A DNA stretch of 62,641 nt, counting the filler, from Platydemus manokwari (lineage: Eukaryota): assembly GCA_037951405.1 (NCBI GenBank). It is 6 parts of 6 records of this genome, joined end to end, with 100 filler letters (N's around TTAATTAATTAA, not from the genome) between each part and the next. Parts side by side here need not be neighbours in the genome. Positions count along the whole stretch, not along the records: positions 30,659 to 40,901 come from JBBMOY011154659.1; 5 more parts are not named here. One strand, given 5' to 3'. A program made the position numbers and the translations under genes. Below the pieces are notes generated by a model. It was not told where the DNA came from. It was given only the letters and a program-made list of their open reading frames with translations, and searched no databases. This document shows positions 5,092-62,619 of this stretch, one piece after another; the first letter of the stretch is position 1, and each line of letters opens with the position of its first letter.

Positions 5092-8000
5092 CTAAAAAAT
5101 TGTTGCCATGTTACTGTGTCATTAATATATCAAATGAAATTCATTAAAATAATATATTTCACCGGACACCAGGTGAAAAAAAATCATTACAATATTTGAT
5201 CCTCTTACATGGAATATTTAGAAAAAAATTTTCTACAATGGCAAAGACAATGAATTGAAATAGTTTCATTGGAATTTTTATCAATTGATTCCAACGGCAC
5301 GATCATCAAAAAGCTGTTGTTTAAAATCATGTTTGTCATTGTTCAAAGCTTCATATCTCTTTAATTACGGTTTTTAATTGTTCTATTCGATGTTGTATTC
5401 GTCACAATTGTCAGTCAAATTTAGTAGAGACCGTTGTGACAATGGCAAATGATAGTAGCCAATACATTCAATAGACCATTAATGAATTTCAACAATCGTT
5501 GAAAACAGTGACATAGTGGGAAAACAATTATAAATGATAATTGCATACAAACCAAGGAAACATCCATGTATATTATATAGTTATATATTATACTATGTAT
5601 ATTATACTAGTTATAAGATGGAGATGGAATAAAACAAGAGTAACATTTTTTACAAAAATTCTCTACTTTATAAAATAATATATTATTTATAATATTAATT
5701 AATGAAATATTTGTTTAGGTACACAGAAATATCAGGGATAAAACAAATGTTCTCTAATAAAGAACACATAGTAAGGACAAATAACTAAATCTTATTATCA
5801 GATTATTACCAACATGAGATTCGAATATATTTCTAATGTTCACCGACAAAAATAATCCATTCATTTTCATTATTTAGCAAAAAACAACGTTTTAAAATAA
5901 TATCTTTACTAATCGATTACTTGATAACGTATAAAATCTTAGAAACATTATCTATTATATAAAATGAGTTCTGCCCGCACGTTTATGATTGCTTAATATG
6001 GGAATAAATCGTTCATATAATATCAGTAGGGTTAGGAAAATATATCACACAATAGCTTATCTGATTTTATACTCGAAATGAGTCTAAAAATAGCATACAA
6101 GAAATCAATTAAGCCAGTCTTAAAAATTAATGGCTTTTCTCGGGGTACATCCGATATTTCTAGAGTTTTCCAAAATTGACAAGCGCTGCCTATTACTTTA
6201 CTAATTCCAAATCAATTAAGTTTTTTTAAGAATATTAATGACCAATTACAATTTCTCAACTTATATCCACAGTCTCCGGTCCTTACATACCAATAAAGAT
6301 TCAAATGATAAAGGTTTACAGACAGTTAAAAAGTATCTAAAATTATAAGACAATATCAAAGGTCGAAATGATCATATACATTGTCCTTATGGATAAATAA
6401 ATAATCATTACACATCCACCAATTATAGTAATATCCGAATATTCATATCCGAATCACAGAGATATATTCCAACAACATACCAAACATCCGGTCTTACAAT
6501 TTGTATAATCCATATTTCCATTGATTACACTACAACACAAACCATTATCAATATCAGCACCAATATTTTAGGAACAATCCTTGATTCTGTTATTTACACA
6601 ATAATCCTTAATCGATTTTGATACAGAAATTAAAAATCGCCATATATGGATTTATTTATCATTCTTATTAGGAAAACTAAAATTATATTTTAGAAAAGAG
6701 ATTTGAAAATAAATATGTTCGAAATTTAATTTGATTTTTTTAAAACGGTCAGTCTCCGTAACTAGAATAAATCAGTCAATAATTTCATACTTCCTGCTTA
6801 AATCCCGGTGATTTATCATACTTATTGTTAAATCACTTGGCTAAATCGAGGCTTTATTTCCAAAAATTTGATCCAAGATGACAGTCCCATTGAAAAATGC
6901 TATCAATTACTGTATATCATGTCAGTGAAATTTTATTTTCAGATTAATTATCGGATAAGAATATTTAGAAATATAAACATCGCATATACAAATCAAATGT
7001 GAAAAACAAAATACGAATACATAAATCAATGATAAACACACACGGACACACACACACATAATCGATACCATAGATAAATAAAAACAGAATATTATAATTC
7101 GTAATTCAATAATTAGTGTAATTCAAGAATAAAGCTGCGACAGAATATTAAGCCAGATCGAATGATGACTAATTCAGTAAATATTCTAATGAATGAAGTT
7201 TTGAAACTCATAATTTGAATGAACTTCTAAAAGCGATATCGCCAATCTACATTACTATAAACACATTCAATTAGATATGCTAATTTCAGTTTATTATTTT
7301 TATCTCTATTGGATATAATGATATCTTTAAGTTCATATAAAGTAAATTTTAAGGAGAAATAAGTTTTCAAATTCTATGAATAGAATATATGATATTCAAT
7401 GAAGTGAATTGTATTGTATAAAATCACAATTACTTTCTCAAAGTATTTGTATTGTAATTTCTAAAATGTATTAAAACAAATTCAAAATATTTGGTCATTT
7501 AAGAGATTATTTTATCATTCTGTCTCAAATTACATTCTAATTCCTTGCAGAAACTTTTCTTTTCCTTAAATCAACATAGTAATAATTTACACTGTAAAAA
7601 TATTCTTATTTTCGACAACACATTTTCAATCACTAATTAATACAAGAAAAAATTTGCCAATAAAGAAACGATTTCAATACAATATGTGAAATATCAAAAA
7701 TAATAATATTTTAACCATCAAGTTTTATATAAAAATATCGTAAAAGGAAAAATTTCTTTTGCTGACAACCAATTTTATTTAATCCTGGAAAATATCAGTT
7801 TAGCGTGAGAAAGAATCACTAATCGGAATGATGTCGACTGAAAACCGATTGGATGTTAAATTAATTTAGAGAATATTCTATAAGAATATTAAAACAAAAC
7901 GAAACATTCAGATAATTATTAACATGGCACATGATTCTTGAAATTGAAAGGTGAACACGAATTATTTGTTTAGCGGATTATTTTTATTATACAACTTTGG

Positions 8001-8988
8001 ACTTATCAATCACACATGACCTACATAAAATAAATCATCGAAAAATGTAGAATTCATCACGCGGAGAAAATATATTAATACAATTACTTTATAGAATATC
8101 TTTATAACAATGGATCCTCATGATCCAAAATAAACAAAATAATAGTCCAATACTAAAATTTAAAATGAAAAGATATTAAAGGTATTGGATAAAAAAACAC
8201 GACAGAATTTTACTTTAATTTAAATATGAAAAAATAAATAATATAATAGAAAATAATTTTAATTATTGGAATTATTAATATCTTTATTTATATTATTATT
8301 TCTTTATTTCTATTTCTAATGTCATTATTATCAATGTCACTATTATCAAAATAATCATTTATGCCAGCATTATCGATGGTTGCTGATCAAATCATTGACA
8401 ATCCAAACAATTCATGTATTGATTTGTTCAGTGTGTAATGTATTACTTCCTACAAGTCGGTATCTAATGATTCATTGAATAGACTAATTTACTATTCACT
8501 CACTGTTGAATATCTTTATCATCAATAATCACAAATTGTCATTGAATCCTGGTTTCAAATAAGCATATTTTCACAATTACTACTAATCTTTCTAATCTGA
8601 GGAAAAGTAACAAAATCGTCAAGTCAAACAAAGGACAATTTCATGATATAGTGATTTACATTTCATATCAACAAACAATATTCCAAACTCTAATTACACT
8701 ATAAAAATCTTATTACCAATTACTAAATACGGTTTTTGTCATCTTGAGAACTAGCCGCAATTTTTTGTCAGACACCAATAATAATCGTATCTCAAATCCC
8801 CTCATTATCATTCATTACTCATTGATATTATCATTATCTAAAACATTCCCAAACCGAGATTTCTTAAATAATTCCCTGATATCATTTCATTGTCAAAGAC
8901 TCATATACAACAGTTATTTTATAAATAATTATATATTCTAGAAATTAATAATAACAAATAAATTATAAAATAAATCTCATAATTCATA

Positions 8989-9088
8989 NNNNNNNNNNNN
9001 NNNNNNNNNNNNNNNNNNNNNNNNNNNNNNNNTTAATTAATTAANNNNNNNNNNNNNNNNNNNNNNNNNNNNNNNNNNNNNNNNNNNN
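8989..9088. other. Artificial contig spacer N44-TTAATTAATTAA-N44
   Basis: Seen directly. An identical 100-bp unit recurs five times; the 12-mer puts stops in all six frames. Confidence 0.98.
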
Positions 9089-9379
9089 AAATTTTTATTA
9101 TTTAAAACTTTTGTAAATTTTAATTATTTATCGTATTTTTAAACCAACCTCACAATTGTTATTATTAGTTTGATTAATAATTTTGTGTAATAAACCAATG
9201 GAAATATTCGCAGAATTCACTGAATATACTGTTGAAATACAAAATTGAAAACGAATCTAAAAATTTCCAATATCAAAAGTATGTTTAATTAAAATTTCAA
9301 ATAAATTAAATCTATCATTACTTACTATCAATACATTTTATATTTAAAAAGATCATTTAAATATTTATCGATTTTAAAT

Positions 9380-10270
9380 ACTAACATCTACATTGATAGT
9401 AGCATTCAATGACAAAATATGAATTTGTTTTTGATTATCGATCTGTAAATGAAGTAACACAGACATCATGTTTGATATAAAAGATAGTCGTCGAATTATT
9501 AAAGAAGTGGATGTGTGTTCTGAAAAATATTTAAAATGGATATCGTTGAGAAAGAAAATAGTTGAAATTATGATGTTATCACTATTAGCAACCATATTCG
9601 AAGCAATTTAAGTCGAATTTCGTGGGCTATGTAAACACGCATAAAAGCTATGACTGATATATTTAATAAGCACAGTTCATGAAATGCATATTTGGAATGA
9701 AGTGAAAAATGATAACCGAAATTTCTTTAAATAAATGGTTATTAAAAATTTGAAAAACCTAGATCGAAGTAAAAATTTTACTGAAAATTAGTATATACAA
9801 AATAGTAAAAATTATTATTAAAATGTTTGAGCGTTAAATTTTTTGAAAGTAACAGTTCAATTGAAATCTGTAGTATGTAACAATACGTGCTTGTTATCTA
9901 ACACTAAAAGACTTAAGTGGATGCACTTGAATATATTTTGTATAACACTGTAAACAAAAATTTATAAAGCATTCTGTTCAATACCAAAGCTAAACAAATC
10001 GATGCACAAATTTTACATACCTATCTACTACAATTACAATTACTAGTATTTGTAATAACTATCACGAATACTCGTAAAAGAAATACTTAAATGATTCCTG
10101 GTTAACTACAATTATGTTTTCTTCAAAGAATGAGTACGATATGTTCTTTCTAATCGGTAGACTTCAACTGAATGTCATCTCATTTCCTATCATTAGTACT
10201 TGTACCACAGTGCAGTAAATACTACATACATTGCCTTGACATTAAAATATCATTTCAATAATTAACTCTT
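9380..10270 (+). mobile_element. Decayed Mutator-like DDE transposase relic
   Basis: Broken frames give LIVAFNDK..YRSVNEVT (cf. VSFDGTW.KRG.SSLNGV) and HIRSNLSRISWAM* (cf. H.C..NY.GSSGAME) in the expected order. Many stops and frameshifts. Confidence 0.35.
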
Positions 10271-11318
10271 ATTTACTACTTTTGTAAACTATTTATATTA
10301 AATAAATTTAATTTAGTAAAACAAATTTCTTTTTGCTTATTGATTTTATTTTTTATTTTTAGCATTATTTAATTTTTTCATTCATTTTTAGTAATTATTA
10401 TTTTATTTAAACATTATAGATTTATTTTTTGACTAATATTTCAACCAGTTTTTATTAATATTTTTACTTATCAGATTATTTAAATTTTTCCACCAGATTT
10501 GCTAGGATACAAGTTACAAATTTTGGGATTTTAAATGAAATTTTATATAAAATTAAAATATAATTAAATAAAATAACGAGAAGAAAATCAATAATAATAA
10601 TTTTCTTATTGGATAGTTATAAACATAAACCAACAAAACAGAAATAATTAAAAATCGACTCGTTTCGGAAATTTGGGATCAAATAAACTGGTATCCAATA
10701 TTTGGTTGACTAATTATTTTATTTGTCTTTTAATGAATCAACTATTTCTTAATATTCTCTTCCTGTTTGTCATGTAACGAATTTTCAATTTTATTGAATA
10801 TAAAAAATATATTACGGTAACTATTTGATTCAAACCATAGAAAACACCATCAACTTGACAAGTAATATATCAATCTCACCAAATCTTCCGACAATTCTTT
10901 CTTGATTTTTATTGTTTTATGTTTTCAATATTTGATGTGATCCATTAAATAATCACCATCATATAATGAGTAAAATTGAGAGAATATATTGTTTTGATAA
11001 TGCTTTATTGTTAACACAGAGAGAAATATCTTGTCATCAATTAGTCCTTTCTTATTAACCAGTGCATTTAATTGACCTTGTTATCATCATGTTCACCTGA
11101 TCGATTATCAATGTCATTTATCATCAGTACTAATTTCGGAAATTTGGATCCATATGATTATGTAAGTTTGAGAAGAAACAGGAATTATCATGATAACACG
11201 AAAGGGTTTTCCATAAAAACATAAAGAAATGTAAAAATCGATGACCCAAACAATGTTTATTAGAATATAATATATAAGTATCGACTAGAGACGAATAAAA
11301 AATTTAAAGTCATTGAAG

Positions 11319-17572: not shown

Positions 17573-18970
<1,398 letters not shown>

Positions 18971-28635: not shown

Positions 28636-30186
28636 TCATTTATTTCTAGAAGAATACTCCTGAATATATTTTCTCACAAGTCGGGTTGAGAGAAAACACA
28701 CAATAATCATGAAACCATTGACATGAGAAATGAGAATTCCAATATGGAGTACAATTTCTTGTGGAATTAATGCCATGACTGTATTGAGTATCCACGAAAT
28801 TCCACTAATAGAACACAACTTGATCCCGATTAAAAACCGTTTGTTTTGTTCATTATTATTGTTGGTATTTAATTGAGCGCAATTTCGAAGATGCATACAA
28901 ATCTTGACGCATACAACTGTAGTCAAGATTAAAATAATGAAAGCTGGAATCATATAGAGAATTATTAAAGGTAATATTTTAATTAAAAGACATGATTGTG
29001 GAATGGAAATTTCCTTAGTCATTACTAGATTAAATCTATTGAGTAGTACAATGACACTACATAAAAATAAGGGAACCAAGAACGATGAACTGAAAAAGCG
29101 AACCTTTCGTATATTATTACATTCGTCACGGCTAGGACTTCGAGAATTGCGCATTGCATTTATATCACTCCAGAAACTGAAAACGTAATTGAATATGCAA
29201 ATCATTTCGGAAATGTGAAAAAATATCGATAAGATTCCCAAAAAATTACAAATCGTAAAGTAGCACGAATTGCATGGAAATAAAGCTAGTAAATTTATGA
29301 TCTCTAAACAGGTGACATTTATTCCGATAGTAACAATCATGTAACTCGTAGATGTATACAATGGTTTTATTGATAAATATACTACTATCAAAATAATTGA
29401 GGCAATCAATACCGTAATTGTAACGAATGCTTGTGTGACAAACATCCAAAACGAATCAGGTGGTACAGTGGCAACTGGATTGCTTGAGGATATATTTGAG
29501 GAATTAGAATGATTTCCAATATCGATATTCTTACTATACAAAACCGCATTGATTGCATGATAAAATAATCCCGATCTTGAAACGGGTGCTTCAATACATT
29601 TGATTGAATTCGTTTGATTGCAGCATTTGAAATCGAAATATCTGTACCAAGCTCTAGTTGAATTAATCTCGGAATAACCAATGTATTCCTTGAAACCTTT
29701 TTTAGATTGAGACCGGCAATCACCCTCTGAAAGAGAGCAAAAGAATGATTTGAGTGACGAGATATTTAAAGCAAATTCGCATTGATAATCGTGTATCTTC
29801 GCAGCTATAAACTGTTCTTCAGGTATGGTTCCTTTGATTCTGAATTTTGATTTACAATTTATTTTATTTTTAATATCAATGAATTTCATTTCGGTCACAT
29901 CGTTACAATGAGCACAGTATTTATTTCGAAACAAAACCCTGTTATTATATCCATACAAAGGCAAATAATCCATTATCGATGGATGGAAAATGTTGGGGTT
30001 TTCACATTTTTCTCGAAAGGCTTTGTCGATTTTCGGATTGGTACAAGTGGAAATCATCGATAAGAAAATACGTGTCGATAGTGGCCAACATATGGATTGT
30101 TTACATTCAATATCAGAACACAAATAAAGAAATATAATATTAATAGCAATTTGGTTTTGATTTGCAAAGCTCCTCATATTTTTCAT
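28636..30186 (-). CDS. Methuselah-like / adhesion-type (family B-like) GPCR, 516 aa, single exon
   Basis: Long ORF with a Cys-rich ectodomain containing FRNKYCAHCN, about seven hydrophobic helices, TM6 GISW and TM7 NGFMIIVCF followed by a basic tail. Confidence 0.85.
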   Translation of the reverse strand: MKNMRSFANQNQIAINIIFLYLCSDIECKQSICWPLSTRIFLSMISTCTNPKIDKAFREKCENPNIFHPSIMDYLPLYGYNNRVLFRNKYCAHCNDVTEMKFIDIKNKINCKSKFRIKGTIPEEQFIAAKIHDYQCEFALNISSLKSFFCSLSEGDCRSQSKKGFKEYIGYSEINSTRAWYRYFDFKCCNQTNSIKCIEAPVSRSGLFYHAINAVLYSKNIDIGNHSNSSNISSSNPVATVPPDSFWMFVTQAFVTITVLIASIILIVVYLSIKPLYTSTSYMIVTIGINVTCLEIINLLALFPCNSCYFTICNFLGILSIFFHISEMICIFNYVFSFWSDINAMRNSRSPSRDECNNIRKVRFFSSSFLVPLFLCSVIVLLNRFNLVMTKEISIPQSCLLIKILPLIILYMIPAFIILILTTVVCVKICMHLRNCAQLNTNNNNEQNKRFLIGIKLCSISGISWILNTVMALIPQEIVLHIGILISHVNGFMIIVCFLSTRLVRKYIQEYSSRNK

Positions 30187-30558
30187 TTGATGAATTGTAA
30201 TTGAATCATTTTCGAACTACATCAAATAGTCATGAAATTATGAAACAGGATTGAAATACTTATTCCAATCATTATCTTATCTGATAATATGAATGCCAAT
30301 TATTTGACAAAATGCCATTTATTGACATATCAGTGCAATTAATAGATTATTTAAATTTAGATGTTTATTATTGGTTTTAAATTATTGAATGGATATATCA
30401 AGTTTTTGATAACTTAATCAATGACAAGAATTATTCCATGTTTATTAATGTCAAATCTTTATCGTAGAAATGTTTACTTTAAATCCATTTTATCAGCAGC
30501 TTCTATTTTAAAATTTTATATAAATATGATTTTATATAAAGTTAGAATTAAATTTGAA

Positions 30559-30732: not shown

Positions 30733-32817
30733 AATTGTATACACGCGGAAAATATACGAAATTTGAAGAATTTCTGTGTAAATCGACCTTAATGGTGGAG
30801 TTTTATTTTATTGGTTTAACTATATTAGACTGTATCGATTGTTGATACTTTTTTATCCAAATTGGCACTCATAGATATTGTAATACCTGACACATGAGTA
30901 TAAAAGTAATTATTAAAAGTAATTCCCAACACCGATTGAAAACTTAATATTTAATTAATCGTCATTTATTGATTAATATTTTAAAAATTTTAATGAAAAA
31001 ATATTCTAATTAGAAATATTAAGATAATTATTAAACATAAATTGTATACACGAGGAAAATATTCGAAATCTATAATTCTTTAATAATTTGATTGTGTTCA
31101 TTTTAATTTTCTAACATCCCAATAAACACTTCATCTAAAAATATAATATTTTATTAGATATTAACAAATTTTCATTTTACCATTTCATCTTTGCTAGTAG
31201 CATTGTTCTCAATACATATAATTTCATTATCAAACAATCTTTTCAATAAAACATTGGCATTCGATTATGTTTTATTTAGTATTTTTTCTAAGTTAAACCT
31301 TCAATCAATTCAATTTTCATAGATTTAATTTTTCACGAAACCTGGAGTTTAAAAAGATTTTTCAACTCAAAAATACTCAAATCATATTTAGAATCATATT
31401 TACATTCGATTCATAGCTTTTCTTCTTTTCCTAATTGGGGTGTTTTCTTTATTTTGTTTCGTTTTTATTATTACAACTATTATTGACACTTTTTTGGCAA
31501 GGTCTGAGTCTAATCAGTACTCTGGAATTCTAATGACTCACAGGTAATCACGAATCTAATAATATGATGTTCATTCGCCTCTATCAACTCTAATCTACAT
31601 ATGGAGACAAAATGAAAGGCTCTAGGCATTGTTTTATTGATTTTAAAACTTTTAATTAAAATTTAATTCTCGATCGCTTCGATCTCACGTTTATAAACTT
31701 CCAAGTGTAGTAAAGCCAATTTGTTCAAGAGATATGGGATTAGCACGATAAATATTATATTATACGGTTGTTATAAATATTTGATGATTTTGCAATTATC
31801 TGAATGCTTATGGATTTCCTATCAGCTTTGAATTGAACGATTTCCGCAAAAATATCTATATCAAATTGACCTTCTGTTATTCACTGGCCATATAATTGTC
31901 AAAAATGTTTGAAGAACTTGGCTGACTTGATGCTTTATTCAATTCGATTCTTGGCTTTCGATTAACTTATCTAGTGATTTAATAATATTGGCAAAGTTAC
32001 TGATGTTGTGAGCCTATTGATTTGATTGTCTATTTGAGGATAATTTCCATATTAATGCGGGTGTACTGTTTTAATTCAATGGGATTATTAAATTTATTCG
32101 AGATTATTGTTCTCATAATAGGAGCATCTAACAAATAAAATTCACCACTGTTATTTTTATTTTATTGAATTCGATTCAATAGAGTATTTTTATCAATAAG
32201 GTATTTTGCTGCCAAGCCAAATATAAGATACGGGTTAATATTCGATTCTATTCAATCGATATTTCTTGAATAGATTATTTTTTGTCACGTTTCTCATTTA
32301 TTTCAGATTTCAATGAGAAAGTTAACGGTCATATCTAACAAAACATATTCATCATGACCATTACAAACACACGATTCCATAGATAAACAGTATTTAAAAC
32401 TTGAACTCAAAACTATTGTAATAAATAAACCCCAGTCATAACCAATTTATTTAAATACCTACACATGAACATTACTAAATATATTTTTTTACCAAATCAC
32501 AAAACTAGTGATAGCTAAATTGATACGCAGTAGACATCGCTGAACCGAAAACATAAAATTTCAGTTATAATTAAAAATCGATCTATGATTATAAACCATA
32601 TTAAACTATAATCTTTTCATTGTGATTATATTTTATACTAAATTCAAGATGGTCAAATATAATTTGTACATCATTATGAACGGAAAAATGTGTTTTTTCA
32701 ATAAATTTGTTTAAAAATATTGGTCAATAAATAACGATTGATTAAATATTAAGTTTTCAATCGGTATTGAGAATTACTTTTAATAATATAACCCATGTGG
32801 CGGTTATTATAATATCC

Positions 32818-33871
32818 ATGAGTGCCAATTTGGATCAAAAAAGTAATTGATTACAGCGATTGATTACAATGGAAAGCATCATCCGGTGTGGATAAGCTTG
32901 CGTAATTATTGGGGAAATGTAGTGTTGGAGCATGAGTGTTGTCCAAGAGCTGAGATAAAACACTACAATGTAGAAAAGACCGGATTAAACGATGAAAATT
33001 TGAGATACGGATACGATGCGGAAGAATCAAAAAGGAAAGTAATATCATATACCCGGGGAAAAATCATTGTGGGTTATGTTTTAAAAAATAAATTGAAAGC
33101 TATGGATATCGAGTTAGCTGAGGTAATGGGAATCAGAGACCTCAAGCGATCTGACGCTCTGAACGAAATGTTGCCGGAAGGAATTGATAAGTCAAACTTA
33201 TAAATTCAGGAAGTAAATTTTCATTTGTTTAATAAAATTAGCAGGCAAGTGAATAAAAATGACGACATAAACTCGCTAATGGAGCTATACCACAAATATG
33301 AGAATCATTGGAGAGACAACCAAATTCGAACAGCCAGGAGAGAAAATGAAATAATCAACAATGCTACCCAAATTTTCGATTGGGCTTATGAAATCAATCT
33401 AGACAATCAAACACTCATCAGAGAAGGCAAAAAAATCTGGGTATTACAACCATTTAAGGAAAAAATTCTGGACAAGAAAAGAATAAAATTTCAAAGGAAA
33501 TACTTGACCACAATCAATGAAAACTATGGCCCATATCGAAAACAAATGATCAGTTATGAAAGTCACGCACTGAAGAAGAAGATCAGAATCGCAGAAATGA
33601 AAATCTCATTACTATCAGACAAATGAATCAATTGATGTCAATCGAGCCTACAACATCCTCAAGTGATGCAGAATGGAATGAAGTTGATGACATTTTATCG
33701 GATATACGAATGACCATGAACGAGTTGGAAACAGCCATTGACGAGACTTGGGAAGAACGACTGATAGCCGTAAGAATCAGTGAAATAGTAAGTAATAGTA
33801 AATGGAATCCTAATGCACCGGAGTTCGTGCCAAAAAGTCATTGGGAAGGTGACATGGATCACCCCAATTAA
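32818..33871 (+). pseudogene. Disrupted intronless ORF: REXO4/ISG20-like DEDDh exonuclease fold, helical region and C-terminal PAM2 motif; probably LTR-element cargo
   Basis: ISLRNYWGNVVLEHECCP / HYNVEKTGLNDENLRYG / RGKIIVGYVLKNKLKAM / IRD / DINSLMELY are colinear with REXO4. ORFs 32847-33203 and 33225-33626 share one frame across a single TAA. The last ORF contains SKWNPNAPEFVP. Confidence 0.75.
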
Positions 33872-33966
33872 GAAAATAATTTTTCTCGGAAAAGAAGATC
33901 AGATTCGGTAGTCCTCAATCCAAGTAAAAAGACGCGTGAGGACACGCTTTCCAGGCCCTCCAGTAA

Positions 33967-34490
33967 TGCTGGGATTTCGAGAAAAATAGACAATAAACTT
34001 TGCATGCTTATGATATTGATGTATAATAGTATTACTTTTTATCATTTTTGTAAATAATTTGATGTGCAAATATTATCCTACTTTTTTGTCTTGTGTTTAT
34101 TTTCTCAAAACGAAATAATCTTAAACCCTTAATCAATTGGAAGTTTTAGTCGTTGAATAATAATAATATTTAATCAAAGTTAAAAATAAAATAGTTAAGA
34201 AAATCTTTTTCGTAAATTGGAATATTAAATGTTTTAGTTAAAATATTAAGTATTTTGGTTAAAGATAATAACTGTAGAAAATCCTTTTATCATATTTTAA
34301 TATGATAATTATTTAGAATAAAATTTGGTTAATTTTTTTGTTTAAAAACTTAGAATAAATTAATAAAATAGAATTAATTAAAATGAAAATAAGTTAATTA
34401 TTTTCATTTTCTGCCCAACGACTAAAAAATCTAATACTTTAAACTCCTATTTTTCCCGAAATTACCAGTATATTAAAATAATACCCAACA
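33967..34490 (+). mobile_element. Candidate 3' LTR (TGCTGGG...CCCAACA, 524 bp)
   Basis: Near-perfect 7-bp inverted termini. Preceded by the hairpin GCGTG-AGGA-CACGC (33934-33947) and a GC-rich tract CCAGGCCCTCCAGTAA at the PPT position. Confidence 0.55.
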
Positions 34491-35018
34491 ATAAAACCCG
34501 CACGGCAACTAAGGCAAAGAGAAAATTCTTTTGAATTGTGAGAATTCGTCACAATAAAGAATAAAAGCACCTGCATATTTTTATTGATCCCGAATAAAAT
34601 CCCATTGTTCATCAAACCATATATAAGGCAGTAAAAACATCATATGCCTGAACCACCCGCCTGTTACAAAGAAAGCCCTATTATATTGAAACCACTAGGA
34701 TAGTGCGTTAAGAAGCTTAATAACTGAAGAAGATCATTTGTGCCGTCGAAGTCGTCAATCTCTCTGCAGCCGTTGTTCCAGCATATGCCCTATAATTTTT
34801 ATGGGAAGAGTATTAAATAATATTGTCCATCCGAAGACGAGACCACGTAAGAGTAATTCCTGTAAAATCAATATATTCTTATTTATTTGGCATATTCTCC
34901 CTATTTATCGAGCCGAGCTCGGAAAAACCTCTGAAGAAACGGACACTGACCCAATAGCACGAACGGTAACTGTTTTGTCCAGCATCTGCTTCCAAAGAAT
35001 TTAAGTGTATATAAGTAT

Positions 35019-35546
35019 TGTTAAAAACAATTGCATATTCGTAGCAATTCATAGCCATAATTGTATATTGTATTCATTGTATATAGTACGGTAAAAGTAG
35101 TAATTTATAGCTCCATAATTGTATAATTGTAATCACAATAAAATTTCATAACCATAAACCGAGTTGACTTGTTGCATTGTTATTTGATATAAGATATCAT
35201 AAATTCATAGTAGTGATTATCATTGTCATTCATCACCTATTCGGGAATAATTTTGGTTAAGTAAATAAAACAGACACTGATAAAACGAGTGAGGACCGAG
35301 TGAGAAAAGTAGTATCAAAATCAGAAAGATAAAGTTAAAAACCAAATATCGATTACTACGCCGATCCACTTATCGTCATATAAGAAGTGATCGTCGCGGC
35401 GAACAAAATAATAAAACTCATAAGGTCATAATACTACCTGAGGGTCTATAACGGACTCAGAGCACTGATTAAGTCGTAGTATAGATCAATCAAAAGAAAG
35501 AATAATAAATCATTAAAAGAGAGTGACCCTAAAACGTATCATAACA
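35019..35546. mobile_element. Candidate solo LTR (TGTTA...TAACA, 528 bp)
   Basis: 5-bp inverted TG..CA termini and an internal short duplication. No clean TSD. Confidence 0.35.
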
Positions 35547-36138
35547 AGAAAATTATTTTAATACATATTTATCGTTAAAAGATATTTTATATAGAACTCA
35601 ATAAATATGGTGTTTCGAATCTCTAAAATTGGTTCACAAATTACGCTTTAAGATAGCAGTTCATATCAAGTACAGGCAGAATTTTAAAGTCATCCTAGTC
35701 ACGTTATGTACTACATGATGTAAAAGGAACTTTTTCAATGAATATGAGGTCCACTATCTCTCCTTTAACATCAGTTTATCATAAGATTTTTCTATGTTTT
35801 TGAACCTGTAATTAAATTGAAAAACCAAGCTTACATTCCAAAAAATAATATTTTGATGTTTCTGTCAAAAACTAAAAATCAGGATATATTTTTTAAAAAA
35901 ATTACACACCTCAATGGAGAAGATTGAAGATCGTATGCTAGACACGTTTAGAACCATTTTCTTAAATATTTTTAAAATTTCATTAAACAAAAGTATATAG
36001 TTTTGGGGTTTCGGAAAATGACAGTCGTTTATTTGGAGACATGAGTCCATATATGTAAATATGTGCATGAACACTATCTTTTAGTCTTGGTATTGCATAA
36101 ATATCTTAACAAATTTCAATTGTCTATTTTCCATTCAG

Positions 36139-39100
36139 GATTTTATTATTGCTTAAACATGATTTTAATCACCATGTCAACCTTTTGCTCAGTGATGGTG
36201 ATAAACTTATATTTTCGTGGCGACAACAAAAAACGAGTTCCATCATGGCTTAAAAAGGTAATGGTTTTTTTTTCATTGTTGGTTTTCGATTTCAAACGTA
36301 ATTTAAATTTCGGACGTTTTTTTTGATTTAATAAAGGAAATCACCGAGCAATGATAAATTTTCATGGAGCATTAATTATTTTTAACAAAAATTAATAGTT
36401 TTTGTTGGTTGAAATAATTTATTGGATAAATTTACATATTGATGATAAAAGCTGATAAAATTTCAATCTAATTTTATACAAGATTAAATTTCTTTTCTTT
36501 TCCGAAACCACTTAACCGAATGATGGAGTTGGGAATTTTAATAAATAAAATAGATATTAATAGATAATTATTATATATAACCTAGTTTTGCCTGAAGCAT
36601 TGTATGAAATTAAACTTCAAATACACTTGGCTTTTAAACCACAGCTTCAATTTCTCTTAAATTTTAGCTTTAAAATTTGAAAAAGTTTTAAATAATTATC
36701 AAGGATTCTTTTAATTTATTTATTAGTTTGTATTTTTGTGAAAAATATTATGGGAAAATGTTAAAATGAAAGGTTAAGAAAACGATAACCAAGGCTAATC
36801 GTTGACAATCCAGAACGAGTTTATAAATTCTTATTATTGTTAATAACAAACCCGATTATCAAGTTAAAATGTCGTTTTATTAATTGCTGGTTATTCGCAA
36901 ATGAAATTTTAACTTGAATAATTTTCTATAAGATTTGAAAATCGTTCAGAAAGAAAAGTAGTAATTTGATGACCGGTATTTCAAGGAAATTTGGAAATTG
37001 TGAAGACAATGTTACAATTTCGAAGCAAAATATTGCCGAATATTTTCCAAAAAATTGAAATCTGGAACTAATTAAAGGTTTGAGATGCGCCGATTTATCA
37101 TACTCGAAACTTAATTGGAGTAAATTTAGTAGAAGTATGTACTAATCTTGAACATATCACAAAATAAGCCTCATAATATCTTTCATGGCTATAAATTTAT
37201 TAGATAGACTGATGTTGCTAAATATAATAAGCAATAAAAATGTAAATTGTCAAGTATAGAAGTTTAAAAATACTGGAATTTTGCCAATATATATTTTGCC
37301 TATATGTGTTGTAATGAACACCCCCGTGAAAGTATTTATTTACAGTGTTTCTCGATTTCAAATACTCTGACAAATCTAAGTTTCATTTTCTTTGAGATTT
37401 GAAATAATTAATAACAGACAAATTATCATTCAAATATTTCAATGAGAGGCGAGAGTTATTTCCAAAATTATATCCTGGAAATATTTCAAGATAATTTTAA
37501 AATTTATTTTAATTTAAATCCAATATTCATAATTATATCATTATTATTATTTTTATCCAATATATTCTTTGCGAAATAAAATCAATTAAGAAAAAAATTG
37601 TTCCAAATCAATTATGACTGAAATATGGATAATTTTACTAGCAATTAATATTTTCAGTTTTAAAATTAGAATAAGAAATAAATAAAATCTCTACCAGAAG
37701 TAATAGCGTTATTTCAAGGAGTAACAATAACTGTTACCTAATTTATATTCAGTTTACCAGTTAAAAATTATATTCACCAATTGAATAATTAGAAAATCCA
37801 AAAAACTAGTTTAGAAGAGTACAACGAAATTTGTTTTCAAAAAATGTTATAGGAAATTCTCACAGAAATTCATTTTACAAAATTCCATTAGATGTCTGTA
37901 TGATAGTATCCCAGAGGACTTTCTAATAGGCAAGTACATTCATTCTCAACGAACAAACCATCTGTTAGTGGCAACTAAATATATCGAATCTGAAGCGTTA
38001 ATTGGGGGGAAAATTTTATTGTTGATAAAATCATTTAGTTCTTAGAAAATCGATATCGAGAAATCAGTTCTCCCAATAGAATTTACATATAGAATTCACA
38101 TTAGTCAAAACAAAGCCTAATTGAAAGCATAATTTTAGCAAAATTTAAAATTAATCGAAGGACAGCTAATAATATGTTCGTAAAAGTGCAAATTTTTTCT
38201 TTGTTTTTATTTTAATTATTAGAACAGTAAAATAAATTTCTAAATCACAATAAAATATTTTTTTGATATCAATTAAATACTGGAATTATTATAATCCAAA
38301 GAATTAAGCGAGCATTCATTGCGGATAAATGATTAGTTTGTTAATAGGTTTGTCGAGCATATTTTCACTCGGTTGATTGAGATATTTATCAAGGATTAGA
38401 GGACGACCATCACTAGGTTAGAAAGATTGAGTCTACTAGATCAATTTTATCCTAGAGATAAAACTGAGTAGAAAATTTTGATGATAGCTACGAAATAATC
38501 ATATTGTGAAATTATGTCCTCTAACGATATTATTTATAGGTAATCGTTAAAGTAGGATTCGTTCTTTTGATGGATACATCGAATATTGTTGCCAAAAATG
38601 AAAAAATAAAAATAATACAATCCGAAATCAAATATAATAAAAAATTCTCCAAGAAAGTCGGTTTCAAATTTGGCTCGAATCAAAATATCGACAAATCTAA
38701 TCGGAATTCCAAAAACAAAAATCACCCAATGACAAGTTCCGGAGAAATGAATTCCAAAATCGATTGCTCGAACAAAGAGAATAGTTCCTCGCGAGATTAT
38801 CCTGTTTCTAATAAACCTAATCTTACTTTAACAATCGATAATAACAAAGTGGGGAACATTAAATACTGTCTTGAAAAGAATAAGATTATTATTACACAAG
38901 AAGATGATGATTCGAATCTTAGAAATTCAAATCCATCCAATCTCACCCCACAATTAGAGAGAACGATATTGAAGTTTTCTCAAACATTAGAAAATGATGT
39001 TTCCGAGATAAGGAAAAGCATCCGAATTTTAATGAATCGGATGGCCGATATTGACAATGCCAACAAAAGAGCGAGTGAATGGCGAACAGTTGCTTTAGTT

Positions 39101-39235
39101 TTAGATAGAATATTTTTCCTAATTTTCCTTACTACCATTATTGTTTCTGCATTGGTTTTGCTTCTACCAAAAAGTCCTAGCAATACAATTGAAGAATTAA
39201 TTCGACAAAATACTCCAAAAAATGAAACCCAGTAA
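36139..39235 (+). CDS. Nicotinic acetylcholine receptor (Cys-loop) subunit, last two exons (36139-36257 TM3; 38540-39235 cytoplasmic loop + TM4); upstream exons not found
   Basis: GFYYCLNMILITMSTFCSVMVINLYFRG..RVPSWLKK|VIVKVGFVLLM...EWRTVALVLDRIFFLIF. Canonical splice sites with consistent phase. Confidence 0.92.
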
Positions 39236-39640: not shown

Positions 39641-40784
39641 TTAAAATAGTTTTCTAATTTGATTAAAGTTTTTATTGTCACATTCTTTACAAATTGAATT
39701 AACGTAATCATTAAAATCACTGCTGGCTTCAGCATAAAGATGATGACCAGCATCATCAATTACCTAAAACAACAACATGTTACCAAGATATTGATATATC
39801 AATCAAAATCGTACTCTGACTCTGACTGATGAATTCAATCGCAAATGTTGAGCTTGATAACCTGTTTGCCAATCCATCCATGATTTACCACCATAAATGA
39901 AAATGACATCGATGTTAGAACTTATATCGTTGATTCTCTTAATCATAGGACGAGATGCCCATCCAATTGGAGAAGACAAGCATTTGAATGCTGCCTCACC
40001 ACTAGATTAAATAAAACATCACAATAGAAAATTTAAACATTATAAATATGAGGATATTTAATTTTTACTTTTAACCAAAATAACCAATCGATTATTTATT
40101 ATGATGATAATTCATTCAAACAAATTTCTCAGTCATATAATTATTTTAGAACATAGTTTCACATTGTCACAAATGGCAAGTAATCGATAAAAGATTTCCA
40201 CCTTGTCAATCATTTAGTTCAATCAAATTGCTTGACAATTCATTGTCTAGCCAAAACAGAAAATATCAAGAAATTTGGTAAAGAAATCAAACCTCGGAAA
40301 CGTAACTGGAGCTCATATTACTGAAAAACTAACAAATGGATTATAATTAAAATTTCTATTAAAAGTGGATGTTATTTGATGAAGCTTGTAACACAATATC
40401 AAGCTCATCTGAGATACGTTAGCGAAAATTAATTAAATCTTTTAATAATAAAAATTTGTAAAGCTATATTAATCAATTATCTCAAATGTTAATAAAAAAT
40501 ATGGCATTCAATAATTAAATAATAATAAAAGATATAAAATTCCTTGGAATACATTTTTAAAGGATTAATTTATACCTGGGATATTTTGTATTGCAATGAT
40601 AAACATAATCGAATATTGCTGTTAAATCAGATTCGGTATGTTTTAATAGAAAGCTTTTACTTTCAAAAGCTTTTTCGGATTCAGACTTTGTATCATCGTC
40701 ATCATCGTCATCATCTTCGTCATCACCAAGTTGATTTTTATCTAATCGTTCATTAGATAATTGTTCATTGTCCTTAGTAATGTT
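39641..40784 (-). CDS. ABHD4/ABHD5 (CGI-58)-family alpha/beta hydrolase, 3' exons 40784-40661, 40618-40576, 40001-39815, 39763-39641; 5' end off contig
   Basis: IFDYVYHCNTKYPSGEAAFKCLSSPIGWASRPMIKRI...IFIYGGKSWMD...DAGHHLYAE is colinear with the ABHD4/5 C-terminus. All intron phases are consistent. Confidence 0.92.
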
Positions 40785-54400: not shown

Positions 54401-54589
54401 TCATAGCAAGATCGTTTTAATAATATCGATAATTAATCGCAAATACATTTGATAAACAGAAAGTACGGAATTGTGAATTGTGCTAAACGAAAGGTATACA
54501 CCGGACGGACTAAAGAGATTAATTTCCCAGGGAAGAATTTGGTGCAGATTATTATTGATGTTTCGTACTTTGGGGAATTTTTGTTTCTC

Positions 54590-55070
54590 GATTTGAATTC
54601 CACATCATCATCGACATTGAAATTGTTATGAGATGATTGTTTTAATGTGATGATAGATGCTGGATCGATAAATGTTTCCAGGAAATATTTCGTATTAATT
54701 CCATCAATCTTATGAACATCGGTTTCAAGCAAATATTCCAATTGTTGAGTCTCTTCTACAGAAATTGTCTAAAATACAAACTTGTAGATGAAAGCAAATA
54801 TAGAAGTGACAAATGATGGAGAAACCTTGATAACTTCGAGACATTGATATCCATTGAGAATCAATACATTATTGATTTTGAAATATTTACAATCATTATA
54901 TCGATCACACCCTTTTTGAATTTTGGATATTTAGAATATGATCGATATTGGATGGATTCTGGATCAATCAAACATGTATTGGTTTTAAACTTGAATTCTC
55001 CTTTAAACTTCTCCACAGCATCGATTTTCAAAAGAATTACTCTATCATGGTGATTGAAAACATGTTCTGT
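54590..55070 (-). pseudogene. Partial duplicate of two exons (with intron) of the CAP-Gly/ANK/RING gene (cf. 61508-62000)
   Basis: Long near-identical stretches (LEYLLETDVHKIDGINTKYFLETFIDPASIIT; FKGEFKFKTNTCLIDP). Frameshifted by a small deletion and diverges after VEFKS. Confidence 0.88.
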
Positions 55071-56430
55071 GAATATATATAAAATATTTGAAATATTATT
55101 ATTTATCATTTAATATTAATATCATCAATATATTAAATTATTTCCAAACTGGCACATTTTAGGCAGATTAATTCAAATTCCAATAATCATCAAAATAGAT
55201 TTTCAATGTAAAGCAATTCTTCGAATTTCTTATAAAAAATTACATTATATTTGGATTAGAATATTTGGTTCTTTTCTTATATATTTCATGGTTTATGAAT
55301 ATAATAAATCAATACTCGATCAAGAATTTCTCGAGTTATTCACGATTTCTTCAAGAGCTTTCTAAATTATTTTTGAAAGAATAATCTTACAAAAAACAAT
55401 TCACGTTTAAAACAAAGCGGATTTTTTTAATAATAAAATGATAATTTTTAAAATTAATTTATCACGGCTGGGTTCGGCACGTTTAGGTAATTATTCCATT
55501 CTGTAAAAATGAAAAATAATACAGTGAGAGTGTTAAATATTTATTGAAAACAGATTGAAAGATAACTTATATCAATCAATAATAAATGGATATCAAATCA
55601 ATCAATAAATGGTATCATAAATTAATTATAAAACAACCCATTAAATTGAATAAATGCCAGATTATCGAAAAAGATTTCATCGATATTCATGGAATCAATT
55701 ATTCTTTTTTTCTTGTATTTTACTCGATAGACCTCGATGAATTGAGTAACGATAAAATAGAAAAATAAGATTATCTCTTGCATATGATTTATAAAATTTA
55801 TTCAAGAATGATGAAATTGAAAATAATTCAGTGGGAATTTAGTTAAATTTTTTAAAATCTCCTAACAATTTATTATTTGAAAAACCGGTCAAAGTAGGTC
55901 AAAATGAAATTATATAATGAGTGAGGACCACTTCTTTTAACATTAGAAGCATATGGAATGATATCAAAGATTTTCAGAGTTATTTTATAAAAGCGTGACT
56001 TCGAAATTATTGAGAAGAGCGAGGAACAAGGTACTTGTGTTTTCTCTCAAAGTCAGTATATTAACATCTATTTAATAGATTGGATACATAGATCCCAAAC
56101 CTGTCGATGTGGTAATGAAATGAAGATTCGATCCCAATCAAATAAATCGTGCAATTGAAGATGCCACAAATATGTAAGCTTCGGAATTCAAAAAGAGACA
56201 CAAGTTCAACAATCCAGCCTTTTCCGACATTCTGAACAAAGTGTTTTTTGTGCACGGGGCTCACACGAAAAATTATATTAAAAAATATATTATATTTACA
56301 AATCCATAAGTAAACAAACAATTAACAAATATTGACAATTTTTATTAAAATGAAATTATTATGAAATTATTAAAATTTTTATTACATTTCAACTCTAATT
56401 GCCAAATAACTCACGAAAAATCATTACTTT

Positions 56431-58071: not shown

Positions 58072-61000
58072 CTAGGGTAAAAATATTCCCCTTAAAGATC
58101 CAATCTCTTTATAGCAGAAAGGACATTTTAATAATTCATCACAACAACTACTGCAGAACAGGTGACCGCACTGTAAAGCCATATTGATTTCATTGGTCAT
58201 GCAAATATTGCATTCCTATTTAATAAAAATTAAATCGATAATACGTTAATAACAAACCACGTTTTGCCTTGTTTTTATGCTATTAATAATACCGCATATT
58301 TTCAATGCATCTTCCAACGATTGACCCTGAAAAATATCTTTAAAACACATCAAATTATTCTTTGTAAAATACCACTCTCTCCAACTTGCTATTATATTCG
58401 AGAACAAGATTTACAGCTTCTTCTTTCTCTTTTATAGACAATGATTTCGGAATGACTTTCTCCACAATTGATGCCATTCCCTTTTGACAAGCCAACATAA
58501 AAGGTGATTCGTTATATTTATTAGCCAATAGTACATCAAATATATCATCATTGATTATTTTATTTATGACTTCTTGAGAATATTTATCTTTGAATAAATT
58601 AGTTAGAAATGTTTCACCATTCTCGAGTAAAATATTTTTATCTCTACAATGTTCCATGGATCTCGTAAATAGTTTTTCATCGCTTTTCTTGAGAGCCAAG
58701 TTGGCAAATTTAAGAAATGTCTGATCAGATACAGGAGTTAAATCACAATTATCAAGAATTAATTGGATTAATTCAATGTTTTCTTCTTTGATTAAATCCG
58801 GCAGTAAATATTGATGAACATCAAGTTTCAAAAGTCTTTTGTTACTTTGAATAAATGATTTGATAAATCTAATAAAATCAATAATTTAAATATTTTCCAT
58901 TATCCAGTACTTTTTATCTTTGTTTTCAAACATATATTTCACGATTTCAATTTCTAGGTTTCGATCATTAGTGCTTCTCAATAAATCCATGAAGTATTTA
59001 TTAAATAAATCTTTTTCATCTAATCAATTATATAATTATAATAAAAATTATATATTATCATACAATTAAATATTATTTTATATAAATTTAAATGGTCAAT
59101 TTTATCATTTTAATTCTTTGAGAACATCTCATAATTTTTTTAAAATACGAAATCGTGCAAATTGAAAAAAATAAAAAAACAATCAATCGAATTCAATCGG
59201 TTCACAATGATTTATCCAGAAAACAGTATTTAATTCACAAATGAAACTATTTTTCACCAATAATTTTTCTGTTAAATTTTCATAACTACTTTATATATTT
59301 TATTTTTCTGTTATTAATTTACATTACTTGATTAAGCAACTCATATTTGTTAATGATTTTTACAATGGTGTCTTTAATGTATTCTGATGAAAATTAAAAA
59401 TAACTCATTAATCATTATGAATGTTGTTAATCATTTGAATTTTTTATTTCCTATTGCATCAATAATTTAACGGAACCTTGAAGCATCGCTTTACAAAAAT
59501 TGTGTTTTTATATTTAACCATTTATAACATCGTTGTAAACTTAGCCACCAAATTCTCTGTCAATGATATATATAATCGATAAACTAACAAATCTTTACAA
59601 CTCTTTATTAAAACAAAATTATATTTATTTACAATGTAAATGGATTTCAATACAAAAACCTTTTAAATTTAGTTTTCATCATCAATTATTATTCATACCA
59701 AGGTGTTTAAAACATTGTGTGAATATCTAAATAATCATTATATTGATTACATACTCCACAATATACTGTATATTGATCGAGACTCATATTTTACATAAAA
59801 TTCCATGAATATTTAACAATGTGATGAAAACATATTTGATTTACATTTTATCAACATGAATCGCAGTGTATTTAGAGGCTTCAAAGTTGCTTGTAATATT
59901 CATTGAAATGCGAAGATAAAATGAGAATGTCCTTAAATATGACAGACTACCTATGGACAGAAATATTAAAGGTTATAATTTGACCATTTCGAACGACGGT
60001 TTTGCTTTTAAATTATTTATTATAAAACATTGAAATCGATATTGGTTCAAATAATCATGAATATAAATATCTTTTAAGCAAATCTTTTGGAAAAATGTTG
60101 AAAATGTCATTCATTCAGTCATAAAACTTTCATTACAATTGCATAACAATAGACACCATAATAACAAAAAGAGATAATTATAACATTAATATATAACATT
60201 ATATTTAATATATAATTATAATCAAAGTAATATTTCTACCATTTTCAAAACATACTGGTTCGAAAAGAGCTCCACATTTTGGATTACATTTAAACAATTC
60301 AACTCCACAAAATGTTCCATCAGTTCCTTCTTGATCTAGATTTTTCTATATTCAAATCAAATAAATAAATCATGAGATAAAAATAAAAATCCACACTGAA
60401 TCTAAACCAATCACTTCATTTTTACCATTTACAAGCCCGTTCCATTTCAATACACCAGATTCTTCACCCTCTCTAATATTGATTCTTTCATTGAAATTCA
60501 TCGAGGGGTTTCGAATCGATCTGTCCACTGTTTTTATGCAACAAATTGAATTCTCATCGATTCTTTTATTATTAATTAACAACGGTTGATGGCCCTCTGA
60601 AATATTGATCTATTATTGAATAATGTATGTGTTTATCCATTGATAATAAAAAGAAAGTAAATGTATCTTATCTGTCAATAATAGAAAAATCGATAATAAT
60701 AAGAATACAAATAATAATAATAAAATTATAAAAATGAGATAAATTTTAAACCTTCGCAAGCTTTATCTAAAATATCTAACAAGCAATAAAATAATTAAAA
60801 AATTGAAATATTTGACGTTGAAACAAGAACATTAAATCGATTTAACTAACCCGTCACACAACAATTTTCTATTTTATTAACTGGAATCAAAACCCCCTTT
60901 TGATTGTGACATTCAAATAACTGTTTGCCTCAAAATTTCCCATTTGTTCCATTTTGTGATTGAAGTCCCTACATATAAATGAGCCATTAATCGATATTTT

Positions 61001-62619
61001 ATAAAATCAAATTTATCACCATCTCGCATCCTAAACAAGGAATGCCATCATTGATTATTCCTGTCCATTTCAGTAAAGCATGTCGCTGTTTCAAATCACA
61101 AGTAAAAATTATATATTTTTCTGTAACTTGTTTTCCCTTTGATATTTTTATCGATTTCGGATTAATTATACAAATATCATTCACGGGGTCAAATATATCT
61201 GCACATAAAATGAGATATTAGCTAATATAATTGTTTATTATACATATCGATTTTATTAAAATTTCTGCCGGAACAATATAATGTTGTCGATGTTCATTAC
61301 CGAACAAATCGGCAATTTCGATATTTTCGAGGATTTCATTACCGCTTTTCTGGAAATGAAATTGTTATAAAATAACATTAACGATAATCATTCTAATATA
61401 ATTAACACATCATTGCAATTCATACCAGCTCGATAACAGCTGACAGAATATGATTGGCTCTGCACATTATTTTGATTTTTCCTTTAAATGATAAATCTTT
61501 GATTTTTGATTTGAATTCCACATCATCATCGACATTGAAATTGTTATGAGATGATTTTGTAAATGTGATGATAGATGCTGGATCGATAAATGTTTCCAGG
61601 AAATATTTCGTATTAATTCCATCAATCTTATGAACATCTGTTTCAAGCAAATATTCCAATTGTTGAGTCTCTTCCACAGAAATTGTCTAAAATGCAAGCA
61701 AGTAGATGAAAGCAAATATAGAAGTGACAAATGATGGAGAAACCTTGATAACTTCGAGACATGGATATCCATTGAGAGTCAAGACATTATTGATTTCAAA
61801 ATATTTACAATTAATATATCGATCACACTCGACTATTTCACTATTTTTGAATTTTTTAGATTTCGAATTTGATCGATATTGGATGGATTTTGGATCAATC
61901 AAACAGGTATTGGTTTTAAATTTGAATTCTCCTTTAAACCTCTTTACAGTATCTTTTTTCACAAGAATTACTCGATCAGGGTAATTGAAAACATGCTCTT
62001 TGAATAAAATATTCTCAAGAAATTTGTGAATTTTCTGAATGAATGAAATGGAAAATGATGAAATTTAATTTCAATAAATAATTTCATAAATAAAATTGAA
62101 CTAATTTATTTATTTAAAACAAATAATTATTGCGTTGACATTTACAAATCATTTTATTATTATAATGCTTGATTGCGGTGTAACATAGTTATCAGGTTCA
62201 AATCATTTTCACAAATATCACTTTTAAAATTCTCTTTTTCTTAAATTATTCATTTTGTAAGAAACCGATAAAATAATCGATAATATAATCTATAATAAAT
62301 AAATTTAAAAAATTATTAAATTTATTTCCCAATCCATCAATCAAATATTATTGATTAAATAAAAATCCAAATCATTTCATTTCAAACAAATATCAATAAT
62401 TCAACTCAAATATTCATCTCACATTCATTTGATCCTCATCTAAACTTATTGCCATCAGTTCCATTCGGTCAATGAAAAATTCAATTTTGCCACACCATTT
62501 ATCCACCACTTGTACCAGTTCATCTATTTTATAATTCTCATTTGTTGTCACAACTTTCCAATCACTGACATCATTTGTATTCGCCACAAAAATATTATCA
62601 ATATATTCTATAATGATAT
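58072..62619 (-). pseudogene. Multi-exon gene with CYLD-like CAP-Gly repeats, ankyrin repeats and a C-terminal Mind bomb-type RING (putative E3 ligase); 5' end off contig; carries disablements
   Basis: Phase-consistent exons 62619-62423, 62034-61744, 61686-61426, 61349-61244, 61198-61020, 60968-60851, 60596-60397, 60345-60240, a broken middle, then ~59019-58911, ~58868-58376, 58326-58261 and 58215-58072. Motifs: LKWTG..LGCEM..GTNGKF*GKQLFEC..KGV; GVLKWNG..GTDGTFCGVELFKC..CGA; NESPFMLACQKG; CNIC..NMALQCGHLFCSSC..CPFC. Confidence 0.8.

Follow-up and report, generated by a model that had tools for sequence, protein, structure and literature searches.

We identified in Platydemus manokwari a gene-like unit that we read as a decayed copy of a repeated accessory gene at the 3' end of an LTR retrotransposon, which would encode a pseudo-nuclease and a putative PABP-binding (PAM2) motif. 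The probability of this reading as a whole is put at about 50%; its evidence base is one decayed copy and one sequencing run, with no link to pol. The window, i.e., the whole stretch of DNA that was analysed (62,641 nucleotides), consists of contigs joined by N linkers, has a GC content of about 26% and carries animal genes. The unit lies inside the contig at 30659-40901, and its features are collected in Table 1.

Table 1. Features of the repeated unit and its surroundings (positions are those of the window).
Feature	Position	Strand	Basis or remark
Inverted fragment, 84% identical to 32693-32845 (upstream region and ATG)	30846..31001	-	Sequence comparison
Non-coding 5' part of the repeated unit	32637..32817	+	Unique flank contig ends at 32667
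Start codon and broken N-terminus; ExoI segment here, unreadable in frame	32818..32850	+	Frame reading
Frame with ISG20/REX4 fold, putative pseudo-nuclease	32847..33626	+	Domain over about residues 1-160; predicted helix at the end of the tail that follows
Second frame, with PAM2	33560..33871	+	Frame reading
PAM2 motif SKWNPNAPEFVPKSHWEG plus, downstream, the W-x-G known from the GW182 half of super-PAM2	33797..33850	+	Pfam 24.6 bits; ungapped match to 8SMO
GGAC-containing hairpin	33934..33947	+	Distance to TG near that in L001 and L002
PPT-position tract	33948..33966	+	Pyrimidine-rich, 7/18 purines vs 14/18 in both relatives
LTR candidate, from its TG start	33967..35546 (or to 34490)	+	Depth bins, flank contig, TATA-like site at 34620
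Cys-loop (nicotinic-type) receptor transmembrane exon	36140..36258	+	Neur_chan_memb, E 0.0042

A second transmembrane exon of a Cys-loop receptor is also found downstream of the element (Neur_chan_memb, E 3.6e-7 at 38540-39235). No exon for the earlier part of the receptor was seen in the contig at 30659-40901, and the element is therefore likely located inside an intron of the receptor gene. The same contig contains a weak match to a type I hammerhead (39820-39972, plus strand; 19.8 bits, cut-off 34). Elsewhere in the window, pieces of host genes lie on the minus strand, namely a PPPDE peptidase (2720-5129), a thiolase (17700-18766) and ankyrin repeats (58355-58885). An unbroken frame of 526 aa (28636-30216, minus strand) whose N-terminal part is rich in Cys and which has several hydrophobic segments looks GPCR-like by eye, and a frame at a contig start (50986-51411, plus strand) has a bacterial look by eye; neither has a Pfam match. 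A direct repeat of about 530 nt (54543-55075 and 61461-62006, 6.9 kb apart) is 87-91% identical.

The nuclease frame and its protein family

A preliminary description of this DNA had proposed an intronless frame of about 350 codons, broken by one TAA and about two frameshifts. The frame comprises 351 codons from the ATG at 32818 to the TAA at 33871 and is spread over three frames with two frame changes, the first segment ending at about 32850 and the middle one containing the single TAA (33201-33203). Six sister contigs, described below, differ inside this codon (among the variants listed, 40 of 693), so that the stop is specific to the window copy. An inverted CCAAT box lies 99 nt upstream of the ATG at 32818; two related DNA loci, L001 and L002, have a CCAAT 80 nt and 71 nt before their ATG, respectively, which is weak evidence. 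The inverted fragment on the minus strand has the same ATG context as the ORF and lies 1.7 kb away from it.

The REXO4/ISG20 DEDDh fold assigned earlier to this frame was recovered in two ways. With an X at the stop, the middle frame matched ISG20L2 (7yw5) in a phmmer search of the PDB (E 3.6e-4), and its AlphaFold2 model (mean pLDDT 72; ten-residue blocks at 77-94 across residues 11-160) matched the known structures of ISG20L2 (7yw5, E 1.5e-6) and ISG20 (1wlj, E 7.5e-6). Pfam RNase_T gave no match to the window frame itself. The five-residue D-E-D-H-D catalytic set is incomplete in the window copy: the ExoII Asp is replaced by Lys (NKL) and the ExoIII His is absent, both as previously described, the ExoIII Asp is kept and ExoI falls in the broken start. 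ISG20L2 loses its activity upon a single change at any of the five residues (reported in PMC10899777), and together with these losses this makes a pseudo-nuclease the reading that fits the window lineage best.

A search of 1.84 billion representatives yielded 72 matches (best E 3.5e-16). With P0073 added, visual inspection and profile scores placed 44 of them in the family; the remaining 29 are for the most part canonical REX4-like proteins. By profile and by the quick tree described below, the window frame belongs to this environmental family of 44 proteins, apart from the cellular REX4-like enzymes, and tentatively to a catalytically eroded subgroup within it. The family profile scored the window frame at 103 bits, against at most 94 for REX4-like proteins, and some eroded members scored below canonical REX4-like ones. 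In a typical family protein the nuclease is preceded by an N-terminal domain of about 170 residues and followed by a low-complexity tail, which is usually long and within one ORF (median 151 aa, n=35). The N-terminal domain is conserved (IPNxLK ... HI..G) and is absent from the window copy; a search of the whole contig with an HMM of this domain gave no match, and no pol remnant was detected upstream of the ATG. For the fold of this domain, atlas matches were all below 0.9, and a PDB profile search matched the nuclease part only. Word-index searches gave no relative of the nuclease frame (244 candidates, 142-454 aa) and only three matches to the family alignment. A metagenome scan provided the two DNA loci of the family (L001:420-1814 and L002:229-1656; 2 of 31 pattern matches).

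All five catalytic positions, with D or E at ExoII, are kept in 28 of the 44 family proteins; 14 are eroded and two are fragments. Many family members have Glu at ExoII. The preliminary description had left the choice between a pseudo-nuclease and simple decay. The loss appears to be largely inherited rather than a matter of decay of the window copy alone, because 14 of the 44 relatives are likewise eroded and four of these 14 share the ExoII Lys of the window. One eroded member (P0002) carries a C-terminal biotin carboxylase domain and is likely a gene-model fusion.

A quick tree was built with 71 of 74 rows (P0011, P0046 and P0057 were left out), in which the REX4-like ("host") label is a reading of motifs in nameless rows. 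It split 43 family rows, the window included, from 28 canonical REX4-like rows (SH-aLRT 100). The window frame thus lies on the family side, on a long branch, and does not group with the cellular REXO4/ISG20 orthologues. The 14 eroded rows, again including the window, formed one group (SH-aLRT 92), which we regard as a tentative clade because the window branch is long and the tree a quick one; long-branch attraction could produce such a group.

Sister copies, element class and the 3' end

Sister copies were found in one public sequencing run, which may be the window's own source. Flank contigs match the window exactly at a depth of 7-13, and depth bins across the ORF range from 189 to 494, depth not being equal to copy number. 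Four long sister contigs cover the ORF at 84-89% identity. From the ends of unique contigs, the repeated unit would extend from about 32637 to about 35546; the 5' boundary, placed by k-mer overlap, lies 30 nt inside the end of the unique contig. Among the variants listed (40 of 693), the ORF shows 11 further differences, four synonymous and seven not, and one of the nonsynonymous differences gives the family G-x-D ahead of ExoII. Depth rises about ten- to fiftyfold from the ORF to the sequence downstream of it. The copies are dispersed and the terminal repeat is commoner than the internal part, as far as depth in one run, which is not copy number, can indicate. Diverged sister copies, together with the grouping of the family apart from REX4-like rows, support the earlier suggestion that this is a mobile, repeated accessory gene and not a host gene.

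The order ORF stop, hairpin, polypurine tract (PPT) and TG marks the 3' end of LTR retrotransposons. As the preliminary description had stated, the window copy has a spacer of 95 bp between the ORF stop and the TG of the LTR candidate, with a hairpin in it. After the ORF stop, both L001 and L002 have a hairpin that contains GGAC, then a tract in which 14 of 18 letters are purines, and then TGTTG; from GGAC to TG there are 24 nt in these loci and 23 nt in the window. The hairpin is unremarkable in stability (z 0.17), and such hairpins occur at three of the 54 GGAC sites on the plus strand of the window. The window tract lies at the same position as the purine tracts of both loci but, with 7 of 18 purines, is not purine-rich. 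Rfam gave no match over the element.

An LTR retrotransposon with a captured nuclease had been proposed, and the LTR-like 3' anatomy shared with L001 and L002 upholds this part of the proposal, whereas no pol, integrase or second LTR was found. Because hairpin, polypurine tract and TGTTG recur with this spacing in both loci, we consider it probable that the element is an LTR retrotransposon. The Pfam scan of 124 frames detected no reverse transcriptase, integrase, gag or transposase; it covered 83 of the 95 frames of at least 65 aa window-wide and 39 of the 50 contig frames of 40-64 aa, and the remainder consists of alternative frames over identified genes plus two on the minus strand that overlie the spacer and LTR start. 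Neither a second LTR nor a target-site duplication was found in the window. The window copy is truncated some 180 bp ahead of the ATG, the L001 and L002 contigs (2.5 kb) are too short for pol, and scans of viral contigs and prokaryote genomes gave no pol-linked loci of the family; a single confirmed stretch was indicated among the viral contigs, but it yielded no locus. Since pol, integrase and a second LTR were not found in the window, the "env position" named in the preliminary description is one that we infer.

The preliminary description had given the LTR candidate as TGCTGGG...CCCAACA. The TG start at 33967 holds, and the CCCAACA end at 34490 is doubtful, as depth continues across it (2263 at 34467, 2220 at 34492 and 3285 at 34517). 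Depth bins of 2373-11057 were recorded across 34080-35789, and the unique downstream flank contig begins at 35515. Of 134 CA sites tested, eight agree with the LTR start in at least six of eight letters, and 34490 is one of them. An end at 35546 (CATAACA) is more likely, because depth continues past 34490 and a TATA-like site is found at 34620. Three observations argue against an LTR that runs to 35546: the GC content steps at 34490, from 20% over 33967-34490 to 34% over 34491-35546; an internal inverted repeat (33974-33989 / 34447-34462) matches at 15 of 16 positions, which was reached in one of 500 shuffles; and depth is only 195 at 33977, like that of the ORF. The stretch 33967-35546 may be two abutting repeats. 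An apparent match of the two parts of the LTR candidate to each other, at an offset of 1155 nt, was rejected as a repeat. The segment 34764-35447 has a very high depth (bins 7951-11057, and 30318 at 34964) and is maybe a nested or shared repeat. Common to the putative LTRs of both loci (L001:2294-2463 and L002:2149-2419) are 41-49-nt spaced repeats and, near the contig ends, a short C-rich motif.

The same three observations, and the failure to find pol, would also fit a mobile element of another class, a DNA transposon or Penelope-like element, next to which the high-copy downstream part is a separate inverted-repeat element. DEDD ORFs of rotifers occur in both LTR and Athena elements (as described in PMC5408684), which is compatible with this alternative. 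It is nevertheless unlikely: both relatives for which DNA is available have a canonical purine tract and TGTTG at the same hairpin spacing, and the nucleases of KolobokD DNA transposons resemble Exu, TREX and ERI1, not REX4/ISG20 (as described in PMC9587614).

The PAM2 motif and the two frames

The PAM2 consensus is LNxxAxEFxP (as given in PMC7356810). The frame scored 24.6 bits with Pfam PAM2 (PF07145; cut-off 20, E 1.7e-5) and holds the sole match to the PAM2 pattern in the six frames of the window. The motif reported earlier is thus present in frame; the frame was also said to end at the motif, and it does not, since KSHWEGDMDHPN follows. The consensus is matched with Trp at the Leu position in the window copy. 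As for other copies, among the variants listed (40 of 693) eight sister contigs, with 734 of 770 in depth, have Leu at the W codon, which gives the canonical LNxxAxEFxP, and one copy keeps A-P-E-F through synonymous changes. The latter is a single short observation, a loose end of 10 letters with four differences, all at third codon positions; the chance of such a placement at random is 1 in 210. There are thus signs of purifying selection on the motif, for which the synonymous evidence is this one 10-letter loose end.

These copies also bear on the possibility that a host REXO4-like gene gave rise to the unit, as a dead retrocopy or by local duplication, and that the PAM2-like string arose by chance. 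A broken and intronless ORF would be expected of a retrocopy, and the Pfam PAM2 match rests on 17 residues. Even so, the frame groups with the environmental family and away from canonical REX4-like rows, several diverged copies exist, and sisters show both the canonical Leu and synonymous change in the motif. Judged from these comparisons, an origin as a host retrocopy appears largely refuted and is highly improbable.

The best PAM2-type match in the PDB is the engineered super-PAM2 (8SMO; E 0.039), which ranked first in another search as well. Super-PAM2 is a chimera of the Paip2 motif and the GW182 motif (bioRxiv 2021.02.07.430159 and 2021.02.07.430161). Its affinity for MLLE is about 20 nM, roughly 300-fold tighter than that of the GW182 motif at about 6 uM (bioRxiv 2021.02.07.430159). 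The window is identical to the published super-PAM2 at 11 of 18 positions in an ungapped comparison, including N-P-N-A-P-E-F and the downstream W-x-G. Trp accounts for 9 and Gly for 11 of the 341 residues in these frames, so that the W-x-G pair has a chance of about 0.001, for a match noticed post hoc. Unlike the designed super-PAM2, to which it is likened by sequence alone, the window motif is natural, and its first anchor is Trp in the window copy and Leu in the sister copies. That the motif binds PABP is very probable. The PAM2 pattern was found in none of the 73 fetched proteins and in none of the six frames of L001 and L002, and the motif would accordingly be lineage-specific at best.

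Whether the two frames formed one fused protein or two overlapping ORFs is about even. The stop of the nuclease frame overlaps the ATG at 33623 of the PAM2 frame as ATGA (33623-33626), and an ORF from this ATG would give an acidic peptide of 82 aa (18 D+E, 5 K+R) with PAM2 near its C-terminus. In Paip2, the PAM1 region is acidic. An arrangement of two overlapping genes, in which an 82-aa PAM2 microprotein of Paip2-like layout (PAM1 at 22-75 and PAM2 at 109-125 in Paip2; bioRxiv 2021.02.07.430161) is reinitiated at the ATGA and acts as a free PABP sponge, is a tentative alternative with a little less than even odds. It is a sub-case of the anatomy proposed here and differs in mechanism, as no nuclease fold would be tethered to PABP. 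The ATGA overlap and the predicted helix at the end of the first frame are in its favour, yet ATGA is frequent by chance (10% of stop triplets window-wide and 24% locally), family tails usually lie within one ORF, and a word-index search (one candidate) gave no relative of the 82-aa peptide. Two long sister contigs span both frames and disagree. The spanning contig of highest depth (68), which is partly non-coding, differs in net length by a multiple of three over 33549-33991 and speaks for two genes, whereas another, wholly coding, is in the register that joins both frames. Two further sisters carry differences within the nuclease frame that break it, so the register weighs little for either arrangement.

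Known systems and possible function

Captured DEDD genes in transposons are already known. The bdelloid rotifer LTR retrotransposons Juno and Vesta carry a DEDDy exonuclease as ORF3 (PMC5408684), in agreement with the preliminary description, and resemble the window unit in that a captured DEDD-superfamily gene forms an extra ORF at the 3' end of the element; PMC6338049 and PMC5718144, in the parts cited, repeat the rotifer case only. Their ORF3 is RNase D-like with intact catalytic residues, which the window frame is not: it is an ISG20/REX4-like DEDDh frame, eroded and with PAM2. The terms "PAM2" and "PABP" are absent from the main text of PMC5408684. KolobokD is likewise an invertebrate transposon with a DEDDh (DnaQ) nuclease gene, but it is a DNA transposon with an Exu/TREX/ERI1-like nuclease, and the part of PMC9587614 cited here mentions no PAM2. 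A DDD/E transposase, RR...YY ends and an Exu/TREX/ERI1-like nuclease would characterize KolobokD; the window gave no transposase match, and the nearest structures are ISG20L2 and ISG20. Planarian Burro elements were also considered and set aside, no exonuclease being listed for Burro in the part of PMC6431247 cited. Human ISG20L2, ISG20 and REX4 have the same fold and include the nearest solved structures, but they lie on a separate branch of the tree, and the window copy lacks the ExoII Asp and ExoIII His. We found no report of a transposon-borne PAM2, of an ISG20/REX4-type family at the 3' position of an element or of its eroded branch in the open-access literature searched.

Maelstrom and EXD1, which act in piRNA biogenesis, are DEDD derivatives that are catalytically inactive but still bind RNA (cited in PMC5408684), and they set a precedent for keeping a dead DEDD fold as an RNA binder; they differ from the window frame in being host genes of other DEDD branches. 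By analogy, we infer a non-catalytic role of the nuclease domain in binding RNA 3' ends.

Under the reading preferred here, the accessory gene would be expressed from the 3' end of the element, and its PAM2 would fill MLLE by two anchors and displace host partners of lower affinity such as GW182. PAN3, Tob and eRF3 are also among the lower-affinity partners of PABP. The dead nuclease domain may hold RNA 3' ends without cutting, as in the analogy with Maelstrom and EXD1, and the net outcome would be a longer life of the element mRNA. That element RNA is protected through competition with GW182 and deadenylase adaptors is possible, at somewhat below even odds. More doubtful is the wider proposal that an LTR lineage evolved a double-anchor PAM2 by itself and, with a dead ISG20-type 3'-end clamp, evicts GW182 and deadenylase adaptors as a poly(A)-tail counter-defence.

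The PABP-binding product could instead act on host mRNA, through sequestration of PABP, shut-off or targeting to stress granules for particle assembly. It is well established that PAM2 binding has no RNA specificity, and in line with such a target super-PAM2 carries GFP to stress granules (bioRxiv 2021.02.07.430159) and its overexpression reduces Paip2 (bioRxiv 2021.02.07.430161). A global effect would presumably come at a cost to the host germ line, and we regard an action on host mRNA as rather unlikely.

The ISG20-like family outlined in this study numbers at least 44 proteins and has both active-looking and eroded branches; two of its members lie directly before a polypurine tract and TG. 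To our knowledge, extra ORFs of LTR retrotransposons are mostly without tested function, and we know of few animal transposon-encoded counter-defence proteins. If the binding is true, the PAM2 would link a transposon protein to the PABP hub of the silencing and deadenylation machinery.
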